A stretch of DNA of 64,000 nucleotides, from NCBI GenBank assembly GCA_035528115.1, contig DATKZF010000001.1:28508-92507 (forward strand). The letters are read 5' to 3'. The DNA is from Candidatus Bipolaricaulota bacterium. Its GTDB lineage: Bacteria > Patescibacteriota > Patescibacteriia > UBA11705 > DATKZF01. The position numbers and the translations under genes are program-made. The notes under the pieces were generated by a model. It was not told the DNA's origin, ran no database searches, and saw nothing but the letters and a program-made list of their open reading frames with translations. This document shows positions 1,436-52,106 of the stretch, piece after piece. How positions within the stretch are numbered: position 1 is the stretch's first letter; each line of letters opens with the position of its first letter.

Positions 1436-1553
1436 ATTGTTACGAATTACAAGATTCTAAGGCATATAGCTATAGATGAATGTAATTCGTAACAAATAAC
1501 CTGAAAGCTAAATAGAATATTGTAATTCGTAACAATGCAACAATGAAGCAATG
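1436..1553. repeat. MITE-like repeat, family 1 copy A: 21-bp terminal inverted repeats TTGTTACGAATTACAAGATTC / GAATATTGTAATTCGTAACAA, ending in CAATGAAGCAATG
   Basis: Inverted repeats read directly; the same unit recurs at 4401-4573, 5903-6110 and 42169-42390. Confidence 0.7.
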
Positions 1554-1588
1554 TGCTATAATTAAAATGAATATACAAATAAAAACAC

Positions 1589-2977
1589 ATGCTCTACAAA
1601 CCATGCGGAGCGGCGCGAGAAGTGACCGGCTCCAGACATTTATTTGAAATAAATAAAAATAAAATACTGTTTGATTGCGGCTTGTTTCAGGGCGGCAAAA
1701 GGGGCGAAGCGGACAAGAAAAACCGTGAGTTTTTGTTTGATCCCAAGGAAATAAAAGCTTTGGTTTTAAGCCACGCGCACATAGATCACGCCGGCATCAT
1801 TCCGCGATTGGTAAAATTAGGTTTTAAGGGATTCATTCATTCTACGGCCATCACCAAGGAATTGGTGGAGCTATTGTTGCTTGATTCAGTAAAAATTCAA
1901 AAACAAGACGCCAGATACAGCGGCCGGCACCTGAATAGAAAAATCGAGCCGCTCTATAATGAGGTTGATGTCAGAAAGGCCGTCAGTTTGTTCGTTGTTC
2001 ATTCTTATCACGACGAGTTTAAGCCGATCAAAGGCGCGACCATCGAGTTTTTCGACGCCGGACATGTTTTGGGCTCGGCCATAACGTTGGCGAATTTCAA
2101 CGAAGCGTCTCGAAATTTGAAATTGATCTACACCGGAGATTTGGGCAGAAAAAATTTGCCTATCTTAAATGATCCGGAACAAGTCGAGAAAGGAGATGTT
2201 TTGATCACCGAAACGACTTATGCCAGCCACTTGCATGAATCAAATCTTCAAGCCAAGCAAGAGATCGAATGGATCATCAATGACGTGGTCGGCCGCGGTG
2301 GAAAAATAATCGTGCCAGGATTTTCGCTCGAGCGCACTCAGGAACTGGTTTATATTTTGAATCAGCTGTATCAGGAGAAGAAAATTCCGCCGGTGCCCGT
2401 TTTTGTGGACAGTCCGCTGTCAACCAAGATTTCCAAAGTGTTTATGAGGCATCCGGAAGCCTATGACAAAGAAACCGCGCAGGAGTTTTTGCAAAAAAAG
2501 AAAAGTCCATTTTATTTCGACAGTTTGAAATATATTACGGACAAGGAGGACTCGCAAAAATTGAATTCATTCAAAAAATCCTGCATTATAATTTCCGCTT
2601 CTGGCATGTGCGAGGCGGGCAGGATCGTGCATCACTTGAAGTTCAATGTCAGCGACGCCAAAAATTTGATCCTGGTCGTCGGCTACATGGCCAAAGGCAC
2701 CTTGGGCAGGCAATTGGTGGAAAAGCAAAATTATGTTTACATTTTGGGCGAAAAATATCCGCTGCGAGCGCAGGTGGTCGTGCTGAATTCATTTTCCGCT
2801 CACGCGGACAAGCCCGAGTTGCTTGAATTCGCCGGTAATATAAAGGGATTGAAAAAAATATTTTGCGTTCACGGCGAAGAAACGGAAAGTTTGGTGATGA
2901 GGGATAATCTGTATAATATCAATAAATTCACGGGTAAAGTCGAAGTCCCGAGATTGGGAGAAACTTTTATTTTGTGA
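1589..2977 (+). CDS. Metallo-beta-lactamase fold beta-CASP ribonuclease (RNase J / CPSF-like)
   Basis: HAHIDHAG MBL motif; beta-CASP architecture; 462 aa; stop overlaps the start of the downstream isomerase gene. Confidence 0.65.
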   Translation: MLYKPCGAAREVTGSRHLFEINKNKILFDCGLFQGGKRGEADKKNREFLFDPKEIKALVLSHAHIDHAGIIPRLVKLGFKGFIHSTAITKELVELLLLDSVKIQKQDARYSGRHLNRKIEPLYNEVDVRKAVSLFVVHSYHDEFKPIKGATIEFFDAGHVLGSAITLANFNEASRNLKLIYTGDLGRKNLPILNDPEQVEKGDVLITETTYASHLHESNLQAKQEIEWIINDVVGRGGKIIVPGFSLERTQELVYILNQLYQEKKIPPVPVFVDSPLSTKISKVFMRHPEAYDKETAQEFLQKKKSPFYFDSLKYITDKEDSQKLNSFKKSCIIISASGMCEAGRIVHHLKFNVSDAKNLILVVGYMAKGTLGRQLVEKQNYVYILGEKYPLRAQVVVLNSFSAHADKPELLEFAGNIKGLKKIFCVHGEETESLVMRDNLYNINKFTGKVEVPRLGETFIL

Positions 2978-2978
2978 T

Positions 2979-3911
2979 ATGAATTTCGTCGATCAAATTT
3001 ATAAAAAAATAGTCAATATTGAAATTCAGGGCGCGACGAGTGTCTGCGAGGCCGTGCTTTTGGCGCTGAAAAAAGAGTCGGCTGACAAAAAAATGAAAAC
3101 TTCCGCCGATTTGATAAGAAGTTTGCATCGGGTCGGCCATTATTTGAGCCGCGCCAGAGCGACCGAACCAATGGCCGAAAACGCGGTCAGGTTTGTCGAG
3201 CATCATTTGAGGCAAAATAGGGAAATGGAATTGAAAGAATTGAGAGTTTTAATAAAGCGCGGCATTGACGGATTTTTGTTTCGCTTGGCGACCAATAAAA
3301 AAAATATTCGCGATGTCGGCGAGCGGTTGATTGAAGACGAAGACAATGTCTTCACCCATTGCCATTCGTCAACGGTGATCGATGTTTTGGCCGAGGCGAA
3401 AAAGAACAAGAAGAAAATTCATGTTTTCAATACGGAAACCAGGCCTCTTTTTCAAGGCAGAATCACCTCAAAGGAATTGATTAAGAAAAAAATTGAAAAC
3501 ACGCAGGTCGTTGATTCGGCCGGACCGTTTTTCGTCAGTCAATACACAAAAGATTATGACATGGATGTTTTGTTGCTGGGTTGCGATGCTATTTCCCAAA
3601 GCGGTGACGCCGTGAATAAGATCGGTTCGCTCGGCTTGGCTTTGGCGGCCAAAGAAGCTGATATTCCCGTTTACATCGCCACGCAATCTTTAAAATTGGA
3701 TCTTGACGCCAAATATTTGAAAAATTTGGAAATTGAAAAGCGTCCAAGCAAGGAGATTTGGCCCGGCGCGCCGGAAGGCGTTGAAATAATCAATTACGCT
3801 TTTGATATTATTCCGGCCAAATACATTACCGGTTTCATTACCGAACTCGGCGTCCTAAAGCCGAAGCGTTTGGCCAAAAGCGTCAAAGCGGCTTACCCGT
3901 TTTTAATATGA
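2979..3911 (+). CDS. e2b2: Ribose-1,5-bisphosphate isomerase (eIF-2B alpha/beta/delta-like)
   Basis: eIF-2B-like family features; sits in an operon with form III RuBisCO and AMP phosphorylase, as in archaeal and CPR AMP salvage. Confidence 0.65.
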   Translation: MNFVDQIYKKIVNIEIQGATSVCEAVLLALKKESADKKMKTSADLIRSLHRVGHYLSRARATEPMAENAVRFVEHHLRQNREMELKELRVLIKRGIDGFLFRLATNKKNIRDVGERLIEDEDNVFTHCHSSTVIDVLAEAKKNKKKIHVFNTETRPLFQGRITSKELIKKKIENTQVVDSAGPFFVSQYTKDYDMDVLLLGCDAISQSGDAVNKIGSLGLALAAKEADIPVYIATQSLKLDLDAKYLKNLEIEKRPSKEIWPGAPEGVEIINYAFDIIPAKYITGFITELGVLKPKRLAKSVKAAYPFLI

Positions 3912-4354
3912 TTAAGTTGATCATTTGGGATTTGCTTGGCGTGCTCTATGAAAACGGGGAAGTCAATCCGTTTGCTCGGGCAATCTTAGCTGAATTTGAA
4001 AAAAAGAGTATTGAAAACGTTTGCGTCAGCAATCTTTCACCGGACACGGTTCATCGACTCGCTGAGCAATTAAATATCAAACATGTTATAATATGCCAAG
4101 AAGAAGGTTTTTCTAAGAAAGAAACGCCGGTTTACGAAAAGGTCTTGTCCGATTTTAAAGTAAAAGCAAATGAGGTTTTATTTATTGACGATAATGAGAG
4201 CAATTTGGCGGCCGCGCGAAAAATAGGTATAAAAACGGCCGTTTTTAGAGGAAAAAAGGGCAATGCGGATTTTGCGATTGATGATTTGGTAGATGTTTGG
4301 GGGATACTTGCACATATCATGGATCATGCCTGCCCGCCGACCTGTCCGCCGTAG
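3908..4354 (+). CDS. HAD-superfamily phosphatase (short); candidate nucleotidase or phosphoglycolate phosphatase
   Basis: DxD-type motif I (IIWDLLGVL) and motif IV (FIDDNESN); start overlaps e2b2 stop by 4 nt. Confidence 0.55.
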   Translation: MIKLIIWDLLGVLYENGEVNPFARAILAEFEKKSIENVCVSNLSPDTVHRLAEQLNIKHVIICQEEGFSKKETPVYEKVLSDFKVKANEVLFIDDNESNLAAARKIGIKTAVFRGKKGNADFAIDDLVDVWGILAHIMDHACPPTCPP

Positions 4355-4400
4355 CTTCACCGGAGGCGGAAGCTTAAGAGCGAAGGCGGGGATCACGTAT

Positions 4401-4573
4401 CATGGAGCATTGTTACGAATTAAAATCATCGAGTAGGCCGATTAATACATTTTACGAATTACATTCACTTATAGCTTTATGCCTAAGCATCTTGTAATAC
4501 GTAACAAATTACCTAAAAGCTAAATAGAATCTTGTAATTCGTAACAATGAAACAATGGAGCAATGGAGCAATC
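4401..4573. repeat. MITE-like repeat, family 1 copy B (~170 bp), ending CAATGGAGCAATGGAGCAATC, ~60 nt upstream of the rbcL start
   Basis: Near-identical to copy D (42169-42390); contains the TTGTAATTCGTAACAA core in both orientations. Confidence 0.7.
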
Positions 4574-4635
4574 TTCGCCTTGTAATCCCGGTTTCCGGTT
4601 TCAAATTACCCATTATCGATTACTAACCATAAAAT

Positions 4636-5901
4636 ATGTCCTCAATAAAATTCGTTGAAATCGGCTACAAACCAAAGGTTGAAAAGGAGCTGATCGCTAC
4701 TTTTTACATGGAGCCGCATAAAGTTAAATTTCACGAAGCGGCGGACGCCGTGGCCGGCGAAAGCTCAATCGGGTCTTGGACGGAGCTGAAAACCTTGAGT
4801 CCGAAAACCGCAGTTCGTCTGAAGGCGCGGGTGTTTTATATCAACGAGAAAAAAAAGATCATCAAAATAGCTTATCCCATGGATTTGTTCGAGAAAGGCA
4901 GTATCCCGCAGTTGCTTTCAAGTCTGGGCGGTAACATTTTCGGCATGAAAGCCGTGAAAAATTTGCGTTGGCAAGATATTGAATTTCCAAAAAAATACAT
5001 TGATTCTTTCATGGGACCGGCTTTCGGAATTGAAGGAATCAGAAAAATTTTAAAAGTGAAAAACAGAGTTCTTTTGGGCAGTATCATCAAGCCGAAAGTG
5101 GGTTTGTCCGCCTTGGCGCAAGCCAAATTATCCGCGGTCGTCTGGCTCAACGGCATTGACTTGATCAAAGACGATGAGAATTTGACGGACATGGCTTTCA
5201 ATCGATTCGAAGATCGAGTGAAAAAAGTTTTTGAATGGAAGCGCAAAGTGGAAAAGGAAACCAAACAAGAAAAACTTTACGCCTGCAATATTACGGCCAC
5301 GCCTGATGAAATGCTCAGACGCGCCAAGTTGGTTAAAAAATACGGAGGCAGGTGCGTAATGATCGATTTGGTCTCGGTCGGTTTGGACAATGTCCAGTAT
5401 TTGCGAAAACAAAAATTAGGTTTGATAATTCACGGCCATCGAGCCGGTCACGCCATGTTCACTCGGTACAAAAAGCACGGCATGAGCATGCTTGTTTTGG
5501 CCAAGTTGTCCAGATTGGCCGGCATTGATCAATTGCACACGGGCACGGTTGTCGGTAAAATGGAAGGCAATGAAGAAGAGGTCATGACAGTCAATAATTT
5601 GCTTAAAGAAGATTGGGCCGCGTATAATGTCGTCAGAGAAGATTGGAGCAATATTAAGCCGGTGATGCCGATAGCGTCGGGCGGCTTGCATCCCGGGTTA
5701 TTGCCGAAATTGATTGAGATATTGGGGCAGGATTTGATTGTTAATTTCGGCGCGGGCATTCACGGACATCCTGACGGCTCGGCTGCCGGCGCCAGAGCCT
5801 GCTATCAAGCGGCCGAAGCGATCAGTAAAGGCATTGATTTGAAAAAATACGCTGAGGATCATGTTGAATTGGCCAGAGCGTTGGAGTATTGGAAATCCTG
5901 A
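4636..5901 (+). CDS. rbcL: Ribulose-1,5-bisphosphate carboxylase large subunit, form II/III (AMP-salvage type)
   Basis: KPKVGLS, GIDLIKDDE and GGLHPG motifs; 421 aa; no small subunit; typical form III N-terminus. Confidence 0.85.
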   Translation: MSSIKFVEIGYKPKVEKELIATFYMEPHKVKFHEAADAVAGESSIGSWTELKTLSPKTAVRLKARVFYINEKKKIIKIAYPMDLFEKGSIPQLLSSLGGNIFGMKAVKNLRWQDIEFPKKYIDSFMGPAFGIEGIRKILKVKNRVLLGSIIKPKVGLSALAQAKLSAVVWLNGIDLIKDDENLTDMAFNRFEDRVKKVFEWKRKVEKETKQEKLYACNITATPDEMLRRAKLVKKYGGRCVMIDLVSVGLDNVQYLRKQKLGLIIHGHRAGHAMFTRYKKHGMSMLVLAKLSRLAGIDQLHTGTVVGKMEGNEEEVMTVNNLLKEDWAAYNVVREDWSNIKPVMPIASGGLHPGLLPKLIEILGQDLIVNFGAGIHGHPDGSAAGARACYQAAEAISKGIDLKKYAEDHVELARALEYWKS

Positions 5902-5902
5902 C

Positions 5903-6110
5903 GGATGTTACGAATTACAAGATTCACTTTGGCTTACAAACGGTTGTTACGAATTACAAGATTCTAAGGCATATTTTCTAGCTATAGATGAATGTAATTC
6001 GTAACAAATAACCTAAAAGCTAAACAGAATATTGTAATTCGTAACAGATAACCTGAAAGCTAAATAGAAGATTGTAATTCGTAACATAAACGTATTCGTA
6101 ATAAACGATT
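5903..6110. repeat. Nested or tandem cluster of family 1 MITE-like repeats (at least two units) between rbcL and the AMP phosphorylase gene
   Basis: Repeated TGTTACGAATTACAAGATTC and ATGTAATTCGTAACAAATAACCTNAAAGCTAAANAGAANATTGTAATTCGTAACA units. Confidence 0.7.
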
Positions 6111-6223
6111 AACCAAAGACCAAGGCTAGCTTATTAGCCGTAATGATTTGTAACGTATTCGTAACAAATATAACGCCAAGGCTAGCTAATTTAGAAGCAA
6201 TTATTTGTAACATGTAACGTATG
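6110..6223 (+). promoter_or_regulatory. Tandem family 2 leader element (two CCAAGGCTAGC...ATTTGTAAC units) running into the AMP phosphorylase ATG
   Basis: Same two-unit architecture found directly upstream of the VIT-family gene at 49191-49274. Confidence 0.5.
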
Positions 6224-7723
6224 GCTTTTTACCTAAAATGCAAAAAACTAGATTTCTCCACGGGCGACAAGCAAATCGTGGTGATCAATGATGAAGAAGC
6301 TGAAAGCTACGGCATTTATCCGGGAGATCGCTTGCTTTTGCAATGGAGCAAAAATAAAAAAGCGGCGGTGATCGCGGATACCACGGCCTCCAAAGTCAGG
6401 CCCGGCGAAATCGGTTTGTTTTCGGAAGTTTGGCGCAAATCCAATGTTGAATCGGGAGATATAGTGGAAGTGAATATCATGTCCAGACCTTTGTCCATTG
6501 AAACGATCAGAAAAAAGCTTTTGGGAAAACCCGTTACGTATGAAGAAATTTACGCGGTAATTAAGGATATTGTGGACGGCACGCTGGGTACCGTAGAGAC
6601 CACCTATTACGCGGCTTCAAGTTTCGTCAAAGACTATTCGATAGACGAACTTTATTATGTGGCCAAGGCCATGGCCGAAACGGGCGAGCAAATGGAATTG
6701 AAAGAGCGGATGGTGGACAAACATTCGGTCGGCGGTTTGGCCGGCAACAGAGTGACCCCTCTGGTCGTGTCCATTGTGGCTTCCTTGGGTTTGTATATTC
6801 CCAAAACGTCTTCTCGGGCGATCACGTCTCCGGCCGGCACGGCCGACACCATGGAAGTGATTTGTCCCGTTTCTTTTTCAATGGCGGAAATAAAAAAAAT
6901 AGTCAAAAAAACTCACGGCTGTTTTGTTTGGGGCGGCGGTCTTAATCTCGCGCCCGCCGATGATAAAATCATTAAAGTCTCCAGGCCGCTGGCGTTTGAG
7001 CCTTACGATAAAATGATTGTCAGCATTTTAGCCAAAAAGGTGGCCATGGGAGTTGATGATTTGGTTTTGGATATTCCGGTCGGTCCTTCGACCAAAGTGC
7101 CGGACATGGTTAAAGCCAACATGATTGAAAAAAAATTCATGGCCCTAGGCAAACGATTCGGCATGAAAATCAAAGCGGTGAAAACCAAAGCTTTGGAGCC
7201 GGTGGGCGACGGTATCGGGCCGGCCCTGGAAGCGCGCGATATTTTCCGCGTTTTGCAAAGGCATAAATTTCGACCGCTTGATTTGGAGAAAAAAGCCATT
7301 TTATTAGCGGGCGAGTTGCTCGAGCTCAATGGTTTCGCGAAAAAAGGCCATGGCAAAGCCATGGCCATGCAACAGCTTAAATCAAGCGCGGCCTGGGAGA
7401 AAATGAATGAAATCGTGGTGGCGCAAGGAGGCAAAGCCAACCAGCATTCCGAGGATTTCACTTCCGGAGCCAAGCGATATGAAATTCACGCGAAAAAGTC
7501 CGGCAAAGTGACGGCCATTGACAATAAAGCGATCAATGAAATTTGCATGAATTTGGGCGCTCCGAGCGACAAATTGGCCGGACTGCACCTCCATGTTCAT
7601 TATGGCGCCAAGGTTAAAAAAGGCGATAAATTGTTCACCGTTTACGGCTCATCGGATGACAGGCTGAAATTGGGCGTTTTGGCCAGCCGGGAGGTGGAAA
7701 TTTTCAAGATAAGCAAGAAATAA
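6221..7723 (+). CDS. deoA: AMP phosphorylase (thymidine phosphorylase family with archaeal-type N-terminal extension)
   Basis: 500 aa; pyrimidine-nucleoside phosphorylase fold plus the N-terminal extension typical of AMPpases; syntenic with rbcL and e2b2. Confidence 0.75.
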   Translation: MAFYLKCKKLDFSTGDKQIVVINDEEAESYGIYPGDRLLLQWSKNKKAAVIADTTASKVRPGEIGLFSEVWRKSNVESGDIVEVNIMSRPLSIETIRKKLLGKPVTYEEIYAVIKDIVDGTLGTVETTYYAASSFVKDYSIDELYYVAKAMAETGEQMELKERMVDKHSVGGLAGNRVTPLVVSIVASLGLYIPKTSSRAITSPAGTADTMEVICPVSFSMAEIKKIVKKTHGCFVWGGGLNLAPADDKIIKVSRPLAFEPYDKMIVSILAKKVAMGVDDLVLDIPVGPSTKVPDMVKANMIEKKFMALGKRFGMKIKAVKTKALEPVGDGIGPALEARDIFRVLQRHKFRPLDLEKKAILLAGELLELNGFAKKGHGKAMAMQQLKSSAAWEKMNEIVVAQGGKANQHSEDFTSGAKRYEIHAKKSGKVTAIDNKAINEICMNLGAPSDKLAGLHLHVHYGAKVKKGDKLFTVYGSSDDRLKLGVLASREVEIFKISKK

Positions 7724-16221: not shown

Positions 16222-16249
16222 AATCAGTTGCTGGATTTTAGCTTTTGTT

Positions 16250-16360
16250 GGAATGACAGGCCACAATGAGTCTGCATGGAATGGAAAGCCCGGATGAGTC
16301 TGAGAAAACTAATTATTATGCCGACCCTTTATCGTCATTCCCGCGAAAGCGGGAATCCAC
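16250..16360. repeat. MITE-like repeat, family 3 (~110 bp), copy 1: starts GGAATGACAGG, ends GTCATTCCCGCGAAAGCGGGAATCC hairpin
   Basis: Near-identical direct copy at 16725-16835; inverted partial copy at 16681-16738. Confidence 0.7.
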
Positions 16361-16388
16361 AAGAGTATCGTCGGCATCAGTATTGTTT

Positions 16389-16676
16389 ATGCGCTCCTAT
16401 TATGTTTACATGTTGGCCAATAAAAGAAATGGAACCCTTTACACAGGAGTTACCAATGATCTTGCCAGAAGACTCGATGAGCATAAGAACGATGTTAATG
16501 AATCATTTACGAAAAGGTATCAAGTCCACACATTGGTTTATTTTGAAGAACATGAGTGCATTGATGAAGCTATTTGGAGGGAGAAATGCATTAAAAAGTG
16601 GAGAAGAAAATGGAAGTTAGCATTAATTGAAAAAGAAAATCCTGATTGGAGGGACTTATCGAATGAATTAATTTAG
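16389..16676 (+). CDS. GIY-YIG nuclease-family small protein (second paralogue); ORF track start at 16266 lies inside the repeat
   Basis: YYVYMLANKRNGTLYTGVTNDLARRLDEH GIY-YIG core; first 31 codons of the track ORF are repeat-derived (duplicated at 16742). Confidence 0.65.
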   Translation: MRSYYVYMLANKRNGTLYTGVTNDLARRLDEHKNDVNESFTKRYQVHTLVYFEEHECIDEAIWREKCIKKWRRKWKLALIEKENPDWRDLSNELI

Positions 16677-16680
16677 GCCT

Positions 16681-16738
16681 GGATTCCCGCTTTCGCGGGA
16701 ATGACAGGTCAGGTTAGTCTGTGCGGGAATGACAGGCC
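16681..16738. repeat. Inverted partial copy of the family 3 repeat end (GGATTCCCGCTTTCGCGGGAATGACAGG)
   Basis: Reverse complement of the repeat terminus. Confidence 0.6.
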
Positions 16739-16835
16739 TAAATGAGCCTGCATGGAATGGAAAGCCCGGACGAGTCTGAGAAAACTAATTATTATGCCGA
16801 CCCTTTATCGTCATTCCCGCGAAAGCGGGAATCCA
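16725..16835. repeat. MITE-like repeat, family 3, copy 2 (direct repeat of 16250-16360)
   Basis: ~95% identical over ~110 bp; accounts for spurious ORF 16742..17047. Confidence 0.7.
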
Positions 16836-16871
16836 GAAAACACAGTTTGAAATTAAACCAAACAAATACTT

Positions 16872-27973: not shown

Positions 27974-28045
27974 AATTTCGCGCCGTATACGTTCAATTCT
28001 AAACGAAAAACAACATTTTTTCAAGGACCGCGCGGCTTAAACTCA

Positions 28046-28083
28046 AAAAAAGTCACCGAAATTTAATTCGGTGACTTTTTTTG
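28046..28083. terminator. Palindromic intrinsic terminator (GTCACCGAAATTTAATTCGGTGAC with flanking A/T runs)
   Basis: Read directly. Confidence 0.5.
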
Positions 28084-28194
28084 GCTCCGCGCCCGCCTGC
28101 CGATAGGCAGGGGCCGGACTTCCTCCTTCACCCCCTCGACTATGCTCGGGGCTTCGGAGGATAAACTTCTCGTCCGTCCGGATTAAAACAACGA

Positions 28195-28226
28195 AAAAAC
28201 ACCGAATTTCGTTTCGGTGTTTTTTC
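28195..28226. terminator. Intrinsic terminator downstream of tRNA-Asn on the minus strand (AACACCGAAATTTCGTTTCGGTGTT)
   Basis: Read directly. Confidence 0.5.
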
Positions 28227-28227
28227 G

Positions 28228-28304
28228 TGGCTCCGCGGGCCGGACTCGAACCGGCGACCCACTGATTAACAGTCAGTTGCTCTAACCAACTGAGCTACCG
28301 CGGA
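28228..28304 (-). tRNA. tRNA-Asn (anticodon GTT)
   Basis: Reverse complement folds: acceptor TCCGCGG, anticodon stem ACTGA/TCAGT, loop CTGTTAA, T-loop TTCGAGT, discriminator G + CCA. Confidence 0.8.
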
Positions 28305-28636
28305 ATGATGTTAAATAGAATTTGTTTCCGATGTAACCCGCTCCATGACCGAGCCCCGCCCTGAGCGAGCCGAGCTTGCGAGGGGAGTCTAAGGGTACCG
28401 CGGAATGATTTTAAATAGAATTTGTTTCCGATAAAACCCTATCCATGACTGAGCCCGGCGGAATAAATTCAATTTTGTCCGATTATCCGACTTGAAGCTT
28501 GGCGGATAATTGTGACAAAAATATAATATCAAGGAAAAAGCGATTTGTCAATATATATGCCCGTTTAAATTTGGTCGGATTGTAAAAAAAATCGCGATAT
28601 TATATAATATTCGCAGAATAACCATAATCAAATTTT

Positions 28637-34157: not shown

Positions 34158-35408
34158 ATGACTGAAATATTATCAAAATGCAAAATTAAAGAATTTGACC
34201 TGCTTTTAGCTGAAAAAAAGAACGTTTTGGCTCTCGGACCCGAATCGGCGGGTAATTTCTCCGTTTATATCAACGGAAAAGTTTATTATTGCTCAGATTT
34301 TGGCGATTTATTGGAGGAAGAGCGTTTTGATGTCTATAAAAAGGCTTTATTTGAGCTTATTGATAGAAATAACCTGATTCCCGATATTATTCGCGTTGAC
34401 CTTCATCCGGCCTATAAAACCTCAAAATTGGGCGAAGAATTGGCTCTTAAATTCAACTGCCGCCTGGAAAGAGTCCAGCACCATATAGCGCACGTTTATT
34501 CGGCTGTATTTGATCAATTTGCGGGCTACGAATCTACCAAAGATTTACCAATCCTGCGAAAACAAGGAGAATACGAATCTACGAATACTTTACGAATACG
34601 ACGAAAGCATGGAGATATGACTCTACCGACAAAATTTTTAGGCATAGCCTGCGACGGCACCGGCCTTGGGTTGGACGGCAAAATATGGGGAGGAGAAGTA
34701 TTTCAATATCAAATATCAAATATTAAAAATAAACTAACGCGAATCGGGCATCTTGAAAACCAGTTGCTGTGCGGAGGCGACGCGGCCATTAAAGAGCCGG
34801 CTCGAATGCTACTTTCCATACTTTTAAATATAAAAAAGCCGGCTGAGGTTTGGCCGATTTTTAGCGCATTTTACACCGAACAACAATTTGATACATTGGT
34901 AAAAATGCGTGAACAAAAATTTAATTCACTGGAGACTTCAAGCGCGGGTAGGGTGCTGGACGCGGTTTCGGTTTTGCTCGGATTTTGCGGCAATGAGAGA
35001 AAATACAAGCATGAGCCCATTGACTTGCTGGAGAAAAATTCAACGCAGCCTTTTGAGCTGGAGCCTGTGATAACTGAAGAACAAAGAAACAAAGAAACCG
35101 AGGAACAATGGAGCAATGGAGCAATGAAGCAATATGTCCTTAACACCTCTTATTTATTTGAATGGTTGCTTGAGAATTTAGATAAAGATAAGGGCAGACT
35201 GGCGGCGACAGTTCAAAAATATATTATCGAAGGCTTGATTGAGATAGCCAAAAGAACTGATCCGAATTTGCCGATTTATTTTAGCGGTGGAATGGCCAAT
35301 AATCGAATTATGAGTCAAATTGCCATGAATAATGGCTTAATCATGGCTGAAAACATCGATCGGGGAGACAATGCCTTGAGTTTGGGGCAGTTGACTTTAT
35401 TTTTGTAA
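34158..35408 (+). CDS. hypF: HypF-like carbamoyltransferase, Kae1/TsaD-like domain only (no acylphosphatase, Zn-finger or YrdC domains)
   Basis: QHHIAHV His motif, GIACDGTGLGLDGKIWGGE, C-terminal FSGGMANNRIM; in-frame insertion of the MITE terminal motif at 35103-35135. Confidence 0.6.
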   Translation: MTEILSKCKIKEFDLLLAEKKNVLALGPESAGNFSVYINGKVYYCSDFGDLLEEERFDVYKKALFELIDRNNLIPDIIRVDLHPAYKTSKLGEELALKFNCRLERVQHHIAHVYSAVFDQFAGYESTKDLPILRKQGEYESTNTLRIRRKHGDMTLPTKFLGIACDGTGLGLDGKIWGGEVFQYQISNIKNKLTRIGHLENQLLCGGDAAIKEPARMLLSILLNIKKPAEVWPIFSAFYTEQQFDTLVKMREQKFNSLETSSAGRVLDAVSVLLGFCGNERKYKHEPIDLLEKNSTQPFELEPVITEEQRNKETEEQWSNGAMKQYVLNTSYLFEWLLENLDKDKGRLAATVQKYIIEGLIEIAKRTDPNLPIYFSGGMANNRIMSQIAMNNGLIMAENIDRGDNALSLGQLTLFL

Positions 35409-36261: not shown

Positions 36262-37122
36262 TTAGTGATTAATAACTTTTCGCATTAATTCATTTACGAA
36301 CTGAAAATTACCATCGCCGGTCAAAACAACGTCAAAATTTTCGTCAAACGCTTTTTTCATCGCCGTGTTTTCAATATTAAGAAAACCCAAAGAAATCATG
36401 TTTTTATAATAAAATCCTTTGACCATGCCCGGATCTCCGAGAGAGTCCCCGAGCAAAATGACATTGGGACGGTTTTTAATCTTTTCAAAAACCGACGGAA
36501 TTTCTTTCAAGACCGTTTCGTCTTTATTTAAACTGTGAATGATCGGCTCGAGCGGACGCAAGGCTTTGCCGTTTTGATCCCACTCGAATTTATTGGTCAC
36601 CTAATAAATATTCGGGAAATTCAATTTATTTTTTTCGAAGAATATGGGAATGGCGTCTCCGCAGCCGCTGGCGGACATTATAATCAAAGGAATGTTTTTT
36701 TCATTGAGCAGAGTCAGAAATTCCATCGCGCCGTCTCGAAACTTCAAATGTCCGTTGGCCACGATATCCGCCAAATCGTTTTTTGACAGTCCGGATTCAA
36801 TCAGCAGACGGTCGTGTTTGTCCCACCATTGCCGCATTGCCGTTTTCTTTTCGTTGATTGAAATACTTAGATCAAGTTCAATCGGATGATAATGATCGAA
36901 CAGTGCGTGAGCTTTGGCCGCGTAATCTTCGGTCAGATGTTTGCCGTCGCGCAGCATTGAAATAATGGAAGGAGTTTTGACCCCGTCAATTGTGCCATAA
37001 GTCAGGGTGCCGTCGAAGTCCGATAAAAAGTGTAATCCATTCGCGCCATCCATTTGAATGGATTTTTTTAATTGTTCGAATTTTGTGGGATTTTGAATGG
37101 ATATTTGCATAAAATTTAACAA
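36262..37122 (-). pseudogene. UMPH-1/NT5C3-like pyrimidine 5'-nucleotidase (HAD) interrupted by a single in-frame TAG at 36601-36603
   Basis: ORFs 36601..37122 (motif I FLSDFDGTLT) and 36262..36600 (motif IV VILLGDSLGD) are contiguous in one frame, separated only by the TAG; together ~286 aa with one HAD domain. Confidence 0.6.
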
Positions 37123-42095: not shown

Positions 42096-42168
42096 AAGTA
42101 TTTTTATTAATTCAATTAAATTATACTTGATTTGAGTTATTAAATCAAAAAGTTAAGTGGTATAATGT

Positions 42169-42390
42169 TCATGGAGCCAATGGAGCATTGTTACTAATTA
42201 CAATCATCCAGTAGGCCGATTGATATATAATTACGAATTACAAAAAGCTGATTAGCTTTAAACGATTCTTACTAATTACTTTCACCTATATCCTTAAGCC
42301 TGAGAATGTTGTAATTCGAAACAAATAACCTAGAAGCTAAATGGAAGATTGTAATTGGTAACAATAAAACAATGAAGCAATGAAGCAATC
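42169..42390. repeat. MITE-like repeat, family 1 copy D (~220 bp); its terminal CAATGAAGCAATGAAGCAATC supplies the start codon of the next gene
   Basis: Collinear with copy B (4401-4573). Confidence 0.7.
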
Positions 42391-49047: not shown

Positions 49048-49190
49048 ACAACCGTTTATGGTTAGCGGGAGTTTTCCAATTTAAAATCAAAAATAAAAAC
49101 AGGCAATTGAAAGGTTGCTTTATTTTTCCCAAAGGGATTCTGTTGGGATAAATTTGTGACCATTGGTAACGAAACAAGAAATACTACAAC

Positions 49191-49274
49191 CAAGGATAGC
49201 TTAATAGACGTGGTAATTTGTAACTAATATAACGCCAAGGCTAGCCAATCGGCGGCAATCATTTGTAACGTATG
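49191..49274 (+). promoter_or_regulatory. Tandem family 2 leader element (two CCAAGG[CA]TAGC...ATTTGTAAC units) ending at the VIT gene ATG
   Basis: Aligns unit for unit with 6110-6223 upstream of the AMP phosphorylase gene, including AATATAACGCCAAGGCTAGC and TTTGTAACGTATG. Confidence 0.5.
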
Positions 49275-51540: not shown

Positions 51541-51818
51541 ACTTATCCGTTTTTTCAATCTTGACTTCGGGTCGGTTTTGATGTATATTGTATTTTGTAA
51601 TCGTTATGCATTGGCCGGCATAGCTTCCGCCTTCGCTCCTCGCTTTGCTCAGAGCTTCGGCGGACAGGTCCGCCTACGTTGAAACTTCGGCGGACAGGCA
51701 GTGGTTTTGCCCGCTCGACTCAGTGGAGCTTCGCGAGCGGGTCCGCTCAGCAGCGAATCTGCGTGAGCGGATAAACCATTGGTTGTATTGCCCTTTGTAA
51801 TTAATCACTATTTATCGT

Positions 51819-51893
51819 GCCAGCGTAGCTCAGTGGCAGAGCAGTGGTTTTGTAAACCATTGGTCGTGGGTTCGACTCCCTCCGCTGGCTCCA
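51819..51893 (+). tRNA. tRNA-Thr (anticodon TGT), with one T-stem mismatch
   Basis: Acceptor GCCAGCG/CGCTGGC, D-arm GCTC/GAGC, anticodon loop TTTGTAA, T-loop TTCGACT, CCA. Confidence 0.65.
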
Positions 51894-52106
51894 CTCTAAA
51901 TTTTGAAAAAGAGTATAACGTGGGTTCCCACCTGCGCTCCTCGCTCCGCTCGTAGGAGTTACGCCTGCCTTCGTCCCTCGACAAGCTCAGGGCTTCCGCC
52001 TACGCCAATGCTTCGGCGGACAGGTCGGCTGGCAGGCCATTTCGCCCTTGATTTGTTTTGAAATAAGGTGTATAATTAAAAACGTTGAATATTTAATATA
52101 GAAAAT

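Follow-up and report, generated by a model that had tools for sequence, protein, structure and literature searches.

Inverted arrays of 40-bp modules form a family of small intergenic repeats in and around a conserved RuBisCO/AMP-salvage operon of a Candidate Phyla Radiation bacterium

In the genome assembled as Candidatus Bipolaricaulota bacterium (GCA_035528115.1), several of the spacers within and around a conserved RuBisCO/AMP-salvage operon are occupied by copies of a short repeat, which raises the question of whether these repeats are mobile DNA, RNA elements of the operon, or binding sites for a protein. We addressed this question in a 64,000-nt stretch of the 266,694-bp contig DATKZF010000001.1 (hereafter, the window), which includes the genes for pseudouridine synthase (psiU), a beta-CASP nuclease, an IF-2B-like protein (e2b2), a HAD protein, type III RuBisCO (rbcL), AMP/thymidine phosphorylase (deoA), and DsbA in this order, the identities of the flanking genes resting upon Pfam and synteny. 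An original prediction had described the repeats as a family resembling MITEs (miniature inverted-repeat transposable elements), bounded by 21-bp terminal inverted repeats. From the evidence presented below, we lean toward the view that they are lineage-specific, modular foldback small interspersed repeats of the BOX/MITE kind, i.e., selfish or neutral non-coding DNA, and not classical MITEs that form target-site duplications. The family looks like selfish interspersed repeats, with its mobility itself being putative.

The four repeats originally placed at 1436-1553, 4401-4573, 5903-6110, and 42169-42390 are well supported by motif counts. The 15-mer TTGTAATTCGTAACA occurs 19 times in the window at ≤3 mismatches versus 2.98 ± 1.71 times in dinucleotide shuffles, with 16 of the 19 falling within four composite repeat loci, while the proposed shared internal block, ACCTRAAAGCTAAATAGAA, is found 6 times (0.01 expected) and the octamer tail, AGCAATGRAGCAAT, 11 times (1.74 expected). 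Beyond the four composites, an nhmmer profile of all modules detected a single extra related locus in the window (49166-49271), and a sixth copy consisting of three direct modules, with one gamma spacer among them, lies just past the left edge upstream of a DUF2207 gene (Logan contig L073, 1-95). Thus, six loci are known, five in the window and one beyond it, and four of the six fall within ~8 kb. Every copy is intergenic, measures 118 to 320 bp, is AT-rich, and has one orientation relative to its downstream gene. The longest open reading frame (ORF) wholly inside an element is 34 aa, as the longer listed ORFs extend into the flanks, and none of the element ORFs matched a protein. In an independent assembly, Logan unitigs L001 and L073 reproduce parts of copies 1-3, and the unitigs carrying rbcL and the pseudouridine synthase gene end within repeats, which confirms the repeats as real and as a cause of assembly breaks.

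All of the composites are built from modules of ~40 bp, each comprising a 16-bp core, TTGTAATTCGTAACAA, and a spacer of ~24 bp. The heptamer GTAAYTC, as a doublet, forms the core, which has a GTAA-N3-GTAA layout and TTGT...ACAA symmetry and which changes from inverted in the left arm to direct in the right arm, such that either strand folds as a long imperfect hairpin. Core starts are spaced by 42 and 40 bp in copy 1, by 39, 42, and 40 bp in copy 2, by 39, 47, 40, and 40 bp in copy 3, and by 40, (40, 40), and 40 bp in copy 4, the last series taking in one degenerate core. This spacing of 39 to 42 bp, or 47 bp across one centre, indicates that each element is a chain of ~40-bp modules and not a simple unit of terminal inverted repeats plus cargo. 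The copies contain one to three modules on the left and two or three on the right, and copy 3 has two diverged B modules in addition. Spacers occur as distinct types, with alpha in the right arms, gamma and delta/epsilon in the left arms, and beta forming the centre; those of one type are ~90% conserved between loci, while different types are very unlike each other. Inverted cores of 16 to 17 bp end all four composites, and the 21-bp inverted termini of the original prediction hold well for copy 1 (20/21 complementary) but are weaker in copy 2 (17/21). Similarly, the predicted octamer tail, an 8-bp tandem repeat of CAATGRAG, is missing from copy 3 but present in the other three.

Module and core mapping yielded the following anatomy, with all of the elements on the + strand and, as had been predicted, located directly 5' of rbcL, the AMP phosphorylase gene, the beta-CASP gene, and a small membrane-protein gene. 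Copy 1 (1436-1553; subfamily A, L1-centre-R1-R2-tail) begins 3 nt past the pseudouridine synthase stop codon and runs through an inverted L1 core (1437-1452), a centre in the 'flip' orientation (1453-1479), the R1 core (1480-1495), an alpha spacer, the R2 core (1520-1535), and an octamer tail (1536-1553), ending at the beta-CASP gene's extended -10. Copy 2 (4401-4573; subfamily B, L2-L1-centre-R1-R2-tail) lies between the HAD gene and rbcL and opens with ATGGAGCA, which is followed by the L2 core (4410-4425), a gamma spacer, the L1 core (4449-4464), a 'flop' centre that is inverted relative to copy 1 (4465-4491), the R1 core (4492-4507), an alpha spacer, the R2 core (4532-4547), and the tail, (CAATGGAG)x2 (4548-4573). 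Copy 3 (5904-6087; subfamily A, L2-L1-centre-R1-R2-R3) starts 3 to 4 nt past the rbcL stop codon and is nested, in agreement with the tandem nesting originally noticed between rbcL and deoA: an outer L2 core (5905-5920) and delta spacer precede an inner L1-centre-R1-alpha-R2 block (5944-6045), after which come an extra alpha spacer and the R3 core (6072-6087). Two diverged, longer B modules (…CCAAGGCTAGC…ATTTGTAAC; 6088-6220) then extend copy 3 to the deoA start codon, their terminal bases, GTAACGTATG, overlapping the ATG at 6221. Copy 4 (42169-42390; subfamily B, L3-L2-L1-centre-R1-R2-tail) is the most complete and is found in a divergent intergenic region 5' of a gene for a DUF5654 membrane protein (Pfam). 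Its parts are the left octamers, the L3 core (42188-42203), a gamma spacer, the L2 core (42229-42243), an epsilon spacer, a degenerate L1 core (42268-42283), a 'flop' centre, the R1 core (42309-42324), an alpha spacer, the R2 core (42349-42364), and the tail, (CAATGAAG)x2. Lastly, the locus at 49166-49271 has two B modules with no inverted arm and runs up to a VIT1-family gene, ending at its start codon (49272). The B module has the form ...ATAACGCCAAGGCTAGC...ATTTGTAAC, is present twice each at 6088-6220 and 49166-49271, and looks like a diverged alpha module by its sequence. Both B arrays share ATTTGTAACGTATG and end exactly at a start codon, and no Shine-Dalgarno sequence is found near the ATG of either deoA or the VIT1-family gene.

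The composites are closely related to one another in pairs. Over ~100 bp, copy 1 (1437-1533) and the inner block of copy 3 (5944-6045) differ by only 2 substitutions and one 5-nt indel, and the inverted cores are exactly where this identity sets in and breaks off. Copies 2 and 4 lie 38 kb from each other; their alignment covers both in full, from ATGGAGCA to GCAATCTT, with ~85% identity, and the one difference in composition is a single 39-nt module, sharply bounded. The alpha spacers, the centres, and the flanks each separate copies 1 and 3 from copies 2 and 4, and this congruence indicates that the composites were copied as wholes and did not grow independently. The 27- to 32-bp centre is inverted between the two subfamilies: positions 1428-1492 are 85% complementary to 4452-4516, whereas the adjoining 1481-1553 are 92% directly identical to 4493-4565. 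Such an inverted centre could have arisen if the loop of a quasi-palindrome was inverted between its inverted cores. We also considered an invertible promoter switch, which was rejected because the flipped centre of 27 to 32 bp is too short for recombinase synapsis and because loop inversion in a quasi-palindrome is the simpler explanation.

For comparison, we used six loci from relatives totaling 86 kb, in which the gene order is conserved and the closest RuBisCO homologues share 85, 81, 78, 78, 78, and 72% identity. The spacer from the HAD gene (or e2b2) to rbcL is 2 to 88 nt in these relatives versus 281 nt in the window, and that from rbcL to deoA is 12 to 121 nt versus 319 nt, while the psiU to beta-CASP spacer of 155 nt compares with 92 nt (L063) and 219 nt (L114). 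Nowhere in the 86 kb did nhmmer detect a module, and blastn-short matches were at chance level. The family is thus a lineage-specific addition, absent from the orthologous junctions of all six relatives, although at 72 to 85% RuBisCO identity these are so distant that exact insertion points are unreadable from the junctions. A 14-nt likeness between the alpha spacer and the deoA to dsbA spacer of one relative (L116) was discarded, as the blastn-short matches are chance-level and mostly in coding DNA.

As the original prediction proposed that the elements might supply promoters, we compared their positions with likely promoter sequences. The beta-CASP gene has an extended -10, TG(T/n)TATAAT (TGTGnTATAAT-like), ~30 nt before its ATG both in the window (TGTGCTATAAT, 1552-1562, + strand) and in the six relatives (L063 ~7110-7121, L064 ~7082-7092, L067 ~88-99, and also L112, L114, and L116). 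It lies outside the repeat and marks the right boundary of copy 1. A candidate extended -10 promoter, TGGTATAAT (42158-42166, + strand), is found immediately upstream of copy 4; if used, all of copy 4 would be transcribed in a 5' leader of ~235 nt. Copy 1 is therefore upstream of an extended -10, copy 4 is downstream of one, and copies 2 and 3 are intercistronic, so the copies have no constant relation to promoters. Within the alpha module, the promoter match is weak, at 9/12 of the consensus (GTAACA-18-TAGAAT) without the TG extension, and promoter-like sites in the elements are not enriched over shuffles. Overall, promoter supply by the elements finds little support. As a separate observation, promoters in this clade are apparently of the extended -10 type (TGnTATAAT) without a recognizable -35, judging from 1552-1562, 42158-42166, and the relatives.

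Several results weigh against our preferred reading of selfish or neutral interspersed repeats. The original prediction called for a search for target-site duplications and for an autonomous transposase partner, and neither was found. Although the ends of copies 1-4 are well defined, no direct repeat is present at their termini; the ATGGAGCA octamers belong to the element itself instead of being target duplications, since the same octamer flanks both copies 2 and 4. Pfam detected no transposase, integrase, Y1 transposase of the RAYT (REP-associated tyrosine transposase) type, or reverse transcriptase domain among the ~60 window ORFs, and no core pair flanks an ORF in the 64 kb. Searches for copies elsewhere were likewise unproductive: the alpha-spacer pattern had 5 matches in a metagenome collection, all of them chance matches in unrelated sequence, the 16-mer had 38 single matches in viral contigs, which is about the chance expectation, with none clustered, blastn against phages and plasmids returned no match, and a profile of the element's open reverse frame recovered no mis-called copy from 5.8 billion proteins. 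With six loci, four of them so close together, local duplication plus gene conversion is indistinguishable from transposition. In addition, the common orientation of all copies with respect to the gene that follows hints, though weakly (p~0.06), at a role for orientation. Finally, relatives have their own unrelated palindromes or tandem arrays (units of 7 to 19 nt overall, with palindromes of tandem 7- to 8-mers among them) at some of the same junctions, including a GTAAC-based palindrome upstream of rbcL in L064 (9906-9990; GTTACNNN x4 / NNNGTAAC x4), arrays or palindromes in L067 (1515-1623, 4253-4335, and 5839-5965, including rbcL to deoA), and others in L112 (3950-4030 and 5440-5465, including bCASP to e2b2). 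These suggest that repeat-built hairpins at such junctions are a recurrent feature of the clade, whether as a tendency or a need; hairpins there could be selected, or the junctions could be mutational hot spots.

Of the alternatives, the one with the most in its favor is that the elements are selected RNA elements, i.e., intercistronic or leader hairpins which evolved in situ at the junctions needing them and which process, stabilize, or attenuate the operon mRNA, in the manner of REP (repetitive extragenic palindromic)/BIME (bacterial interspersed mosaic element) sequences or of RNase III sites in Correia elements. The relatives' differing palindromes of tandem short repeats at the same junctions fit this explanation, as does the common orientation of all copies relative to transcription. 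Copies 2 and 3 are also inside an operon that is compact in relatives and must thus be co-transcribed unless they carry promoters. The long hairpins foreseen in the original prediction are indeed predicted, with stabilities well beyond those of shuffles (z = -5.4, -2.6, -9.6, and -4.4 for copies 1, 2, 3, and 4). However, alignments of one arm against the other (39 non-wobble mismatches) are near perfect in the cores only, with the spacers largely mismatched, and core substitutions are mostly uncompensated (e.g., L4411, L4450, R4492, and L1/R1 of copy 4), the sole exception being a double change in the L3/R2 pair of copy 4 that leaves a T-G wobble. When a strand-specific RNA signal was sought from G-U versus A-C mismatches and from the folding energies of the two strands, none was detected, as the G-U count is 5 for the + strand and 7 for the - strand and the two strands fold with equal energy. 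T-runs are absent after the hairpins, Rfam found only four tRNAs in the window at gathering thresholds and nothing over the elements at E≤1, and copy 1 sits upstream of the conserved promoter of its downstream gene and hence outside the transcript of that gene. Pairing that is largely confined to the core, mostly uncompensated, and free of strand bias indicates that the hairpin potential is a consequence of the inverted cores and bears no mark of selection for pairing. These observations argue against selected RNA structure, and we regard this explanation as unlikely.

We consider two protein-centered explanations to be less likely still, and to about the same degree as each other. In one, the elements are protein-binding arrays in which the 16-bp core is an operator and the 40-bp phasing (~four helical turns), which would put all sites on one helix face, supports a cooperative complex co-regulating the salvage genes. 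This agrees with the regular 39- to 42-bp spacing, with the core being the sole feature common to all module types while spacers vary strongly, and with sites being 5' of several genes in one pathway. Nevertheless, conservation within a spacer type is about as high as that of the cores (~90%), which points to block copying rather than site selection, unrelated genes are targeted as well (DUF2207, DUF5654, and VIT1), the relatives have the same operon without any such sites, and no regulator gene is adjacent; the inconsistent placement relative to promoters (upstream, downstream, and intercistronic) also speaks against it. In the other, the core arrays are a platform for a dedicated protein, which would be either the enzyme of a hitherto undescribed foldback transposon family of the Candidate Phyla Radiation (CPR) that makes no target-site duplications or a RuBisCO/AMP-salvage regulator. 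In either version, recognition of the GTAAY heptamer could be shared with (GTAAYTC)n arrays of Bacteroidota, Ignavibacteria, Verrucomicrobia, and Peribacteria. The least likely of all is a classical MITE, a deletion derivative of a DDE-transposase insertion sequence (IS) with matching 16- to 21-bp terminal inverted repeats that is cut and pasted in trans. The MITE-like character originally proposed does stand insofar as the elements are small, AT-rich, non-coding, and intergenic, with inverted termini and foldback potential, and are absent from orthologous sites (PMC3049150). However, target-site duplications of any length are absent from the four copies, whose ends are well defined, the core recurs inside an element as many as five times, with a variable number of modules in place of a fixed unit, and the 64 kb holds no partner IS. 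We therefore do not class the elements as MITEs, on account of the missing target-site duplication and the lack of an identifiable partner in these 64 kb. Other kinds of repeat system were also rejected. Integron attC sites are a poor fit in both their inverse-core/core order and their consensus (RYYYAAC...GTTRRRY), and the flanking genes are not integron cassettes, as they are syntenic in relatives; CRISPR arrays are incompatible with spacers conserved between loci, inverted arms, a repeat of only 16 bp, and the absence of cas domains in the ORFs; and retrons and diversity-generating retroelements are unsuited by architecture and by the lack of reverse transcriptase genes.

Among known bacterial repeats, the closest analogue in architecture is the BOX element of S. 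pneumoniae and S. suis (boxA-boxB(n)-boxC), a composite intergenic repeat having variable boxB arrays and ends that pair, which is often co-transcribed with its neighbors and whose mobility is inferred, with the mechanism being unclear (PMC3049150). Both families have a module of ~40 to 45 bp in variable tandem number and end parts that pair as a stem-loop. No sequence relationship between them is apparent or, across phyla, expected, however, and the window modules all share one 16-bp core and are arranged in inverted arrays on both arms, whereas BOX is one direct array between distinct end modules; also, six loci are known here versus >100 for BOX. MITEs such as the Correia elements of Neisseria, RUP, and Nezha are short, AT-rich, non-coding repeats with terminal inverted repeats and strong hairpin potential that insert beside or within transcription units, where they can create RNase III sites or promoters, and BOX, Correia, BIME, and ERIC are all modular or foldback intergenic repeats that affect co-transcribed genes (PMC3049150). 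The window family resembles MITEs in the general features listed above and departs from them in its internally repeated terminal motif and variable modular length, as well as in having neither a target-site duplication nor an identified transposase. The core itself, as a GTAAYTC doublet, recalls the heptanucleotide long simple sequence repeats (LSSR) of Beggiatoaceae, in which the unit is TAACTGA (PMC4679880). Like these, some of the window modules abut start codons, but the window repeats have a period of 40 bp and not 7 bp, their arrays are inverted, and their spacers are complex, with conservation from one locus to another. A search of the genome collection for two cores 24 to 32 nt apart returned 61 stretches (L002-L062), all of which were (GTAAYTC)n microsatellites in other phyla and none an element. 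These arrays occur in Bacteroidota, Ignavibacteria, Akkermansia, Planctomycetes, Fibrobacteria, and one Peribacteria (CPR) metagenome-assembled genome (MAG), often at contig ends and often beside other 7- to 8-mer arrays, with some being inverted or foldback (L018, L019, and L058). REP/BIME and REPIN-RAYT systems are intergenic palindromic units, often in inverted pairs, located at 3' ends or between cistrons, and can affect mRNA stability. In contrast to the REPIN-RAYT systems, the window has no RAYT gene among its ORFs, and the repeat units here span 40 bp each, their core not being palindromic and their long spacers being mismatched. In eukaryotes, foldback (FB) transposons have inverted arms of variable-number tandem sub-repeats, unequal arms, and a short central loop; they are much longer, and some carry coding sequences. 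The window family resembles them in the architecture of its arms, a likeness that is an analogy only, with no evidence of homology.

Returning to the preferred reading of lineage-specific foldback repeats, the basic unit would be the ~100-bp L1-centre-R1-alpha-R2 block between inverted copies of TTGTAATTCGTAACAA. Modules of 40 bp (core plus a 24-bp alpha, gamma, delta, or epsilon spacer) would be gained or lost on either arm, probably via unequal recombination or slippage between cores, and the short centre may flip through recombination or template switching between the inverted cores. Whole elements were copied between intergenic sites, as the two congruent subfamilies show, spreading perhaps by means of a trans-acting, core-binding enzyme that makes no target duplication or by ectopic recombination or gene conversion. 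Through these copies, the spacers of an operon that is otherwise compact have grown longer. Copies 2 and 3 are presumably transcribed inside the e2b2-HAD-rbcL-deoA operon, with copy 4 probably being in a 5' leader, and the RNA of the transcribed copies would form long imperfect hairpins for which processing, stabilization, or attenuation is possible. Any such effects upon the operon mRNA would likely be a by-product and not a selected function.

Inspection of the window also revealed other repeats and unusual ORFs. A HypF Kae1-like ORF (34158-35408) has in-frame repeat insertions at 34527-34615 and 35096-35140 that recall the Rickettsia palindromic elements in ORFs; it has four TACGAAT motifs (the heart of the core, in left-arm orientation) between its two Pfam domains, and its second domain includes AACAATGGAGCAATGGAGCAAT, which is identical to the copy 2 tail and encodes ...EEQWSNGAMKQ.... 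A GC-rich, hairpin-forming family (…CCTGTCCGCCGAAGC…GGCGGA…) is present at 4328-4373, 51639-51698, and 51992-52037 of this AT-rich genome. The copy at 4328-4373, directly upstream of copy 2, extends over the HAD stop codon, the HAD product being 148 aa long versus 139 to 142 aa in relatives, while the others flank a tRNA (51819-51890). An ORF with a GIY-YIG nuclease domain (16266-16676) is found between 125-nt direct repeats (16238-16362 and 16714-16838; 92% identical), each of which ends in GTCATTCCCGCGAAAGCGGGAATCCA, and with an inverted copy at 16679-16705 these yield perfect 26- to 27-nt inverted repeats; from its sequence, this ORF with its repeats resembles a small homing or mobile unit in its own right. 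Two abutting ORFs on the - strand (36262-36600 and 36601-37122) encode a pyrimidine 5'-nucleotidase (UMPH-1) homologue and correspond to the two halves of the Pfam model, N-terminal and C-terminal, possibly reflecting an internal stop, a frameshift, or a pseudogene. Two direct-repeat pairs, 28028-28091 / 28174-28237 (72%) and 28296-28359 / 28396-28459 (89%), adjoin a tRNA on the - strand (28231-28304). The first consists of terminator-like hairpins with T-runs, while the second overlaps the 5' end of the tRNA, which suggests partial tRNA duplication.

Small interspersed repeats are commonplace in bacteria generally, and the present case rests upon one genome and six loci, but a targeted full-text literature search yielded no description of such repeats in CPR/Patescibacteria. 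What is unusual here is the combination of 40-bp modules that share one 16-bp core and are set in inverted arrays, no target-site duplication, and a location inside a conserved RuBisCO/AMP-salvage operon. The repeats also break short-read assemblies exactly at these genes, which is relevant for MAG reconstruction. A small CPR genome evidently tolerates a repeat family that enlarges the spacers of a conserved operon three- to tenfold. If the family is mobile, it would point to an unrecognized mobilization mechanism in the CPR, and if its copies are processed in RNA, the normally polycistronic RuBisCO/AMP-phosphorylase message would be split.

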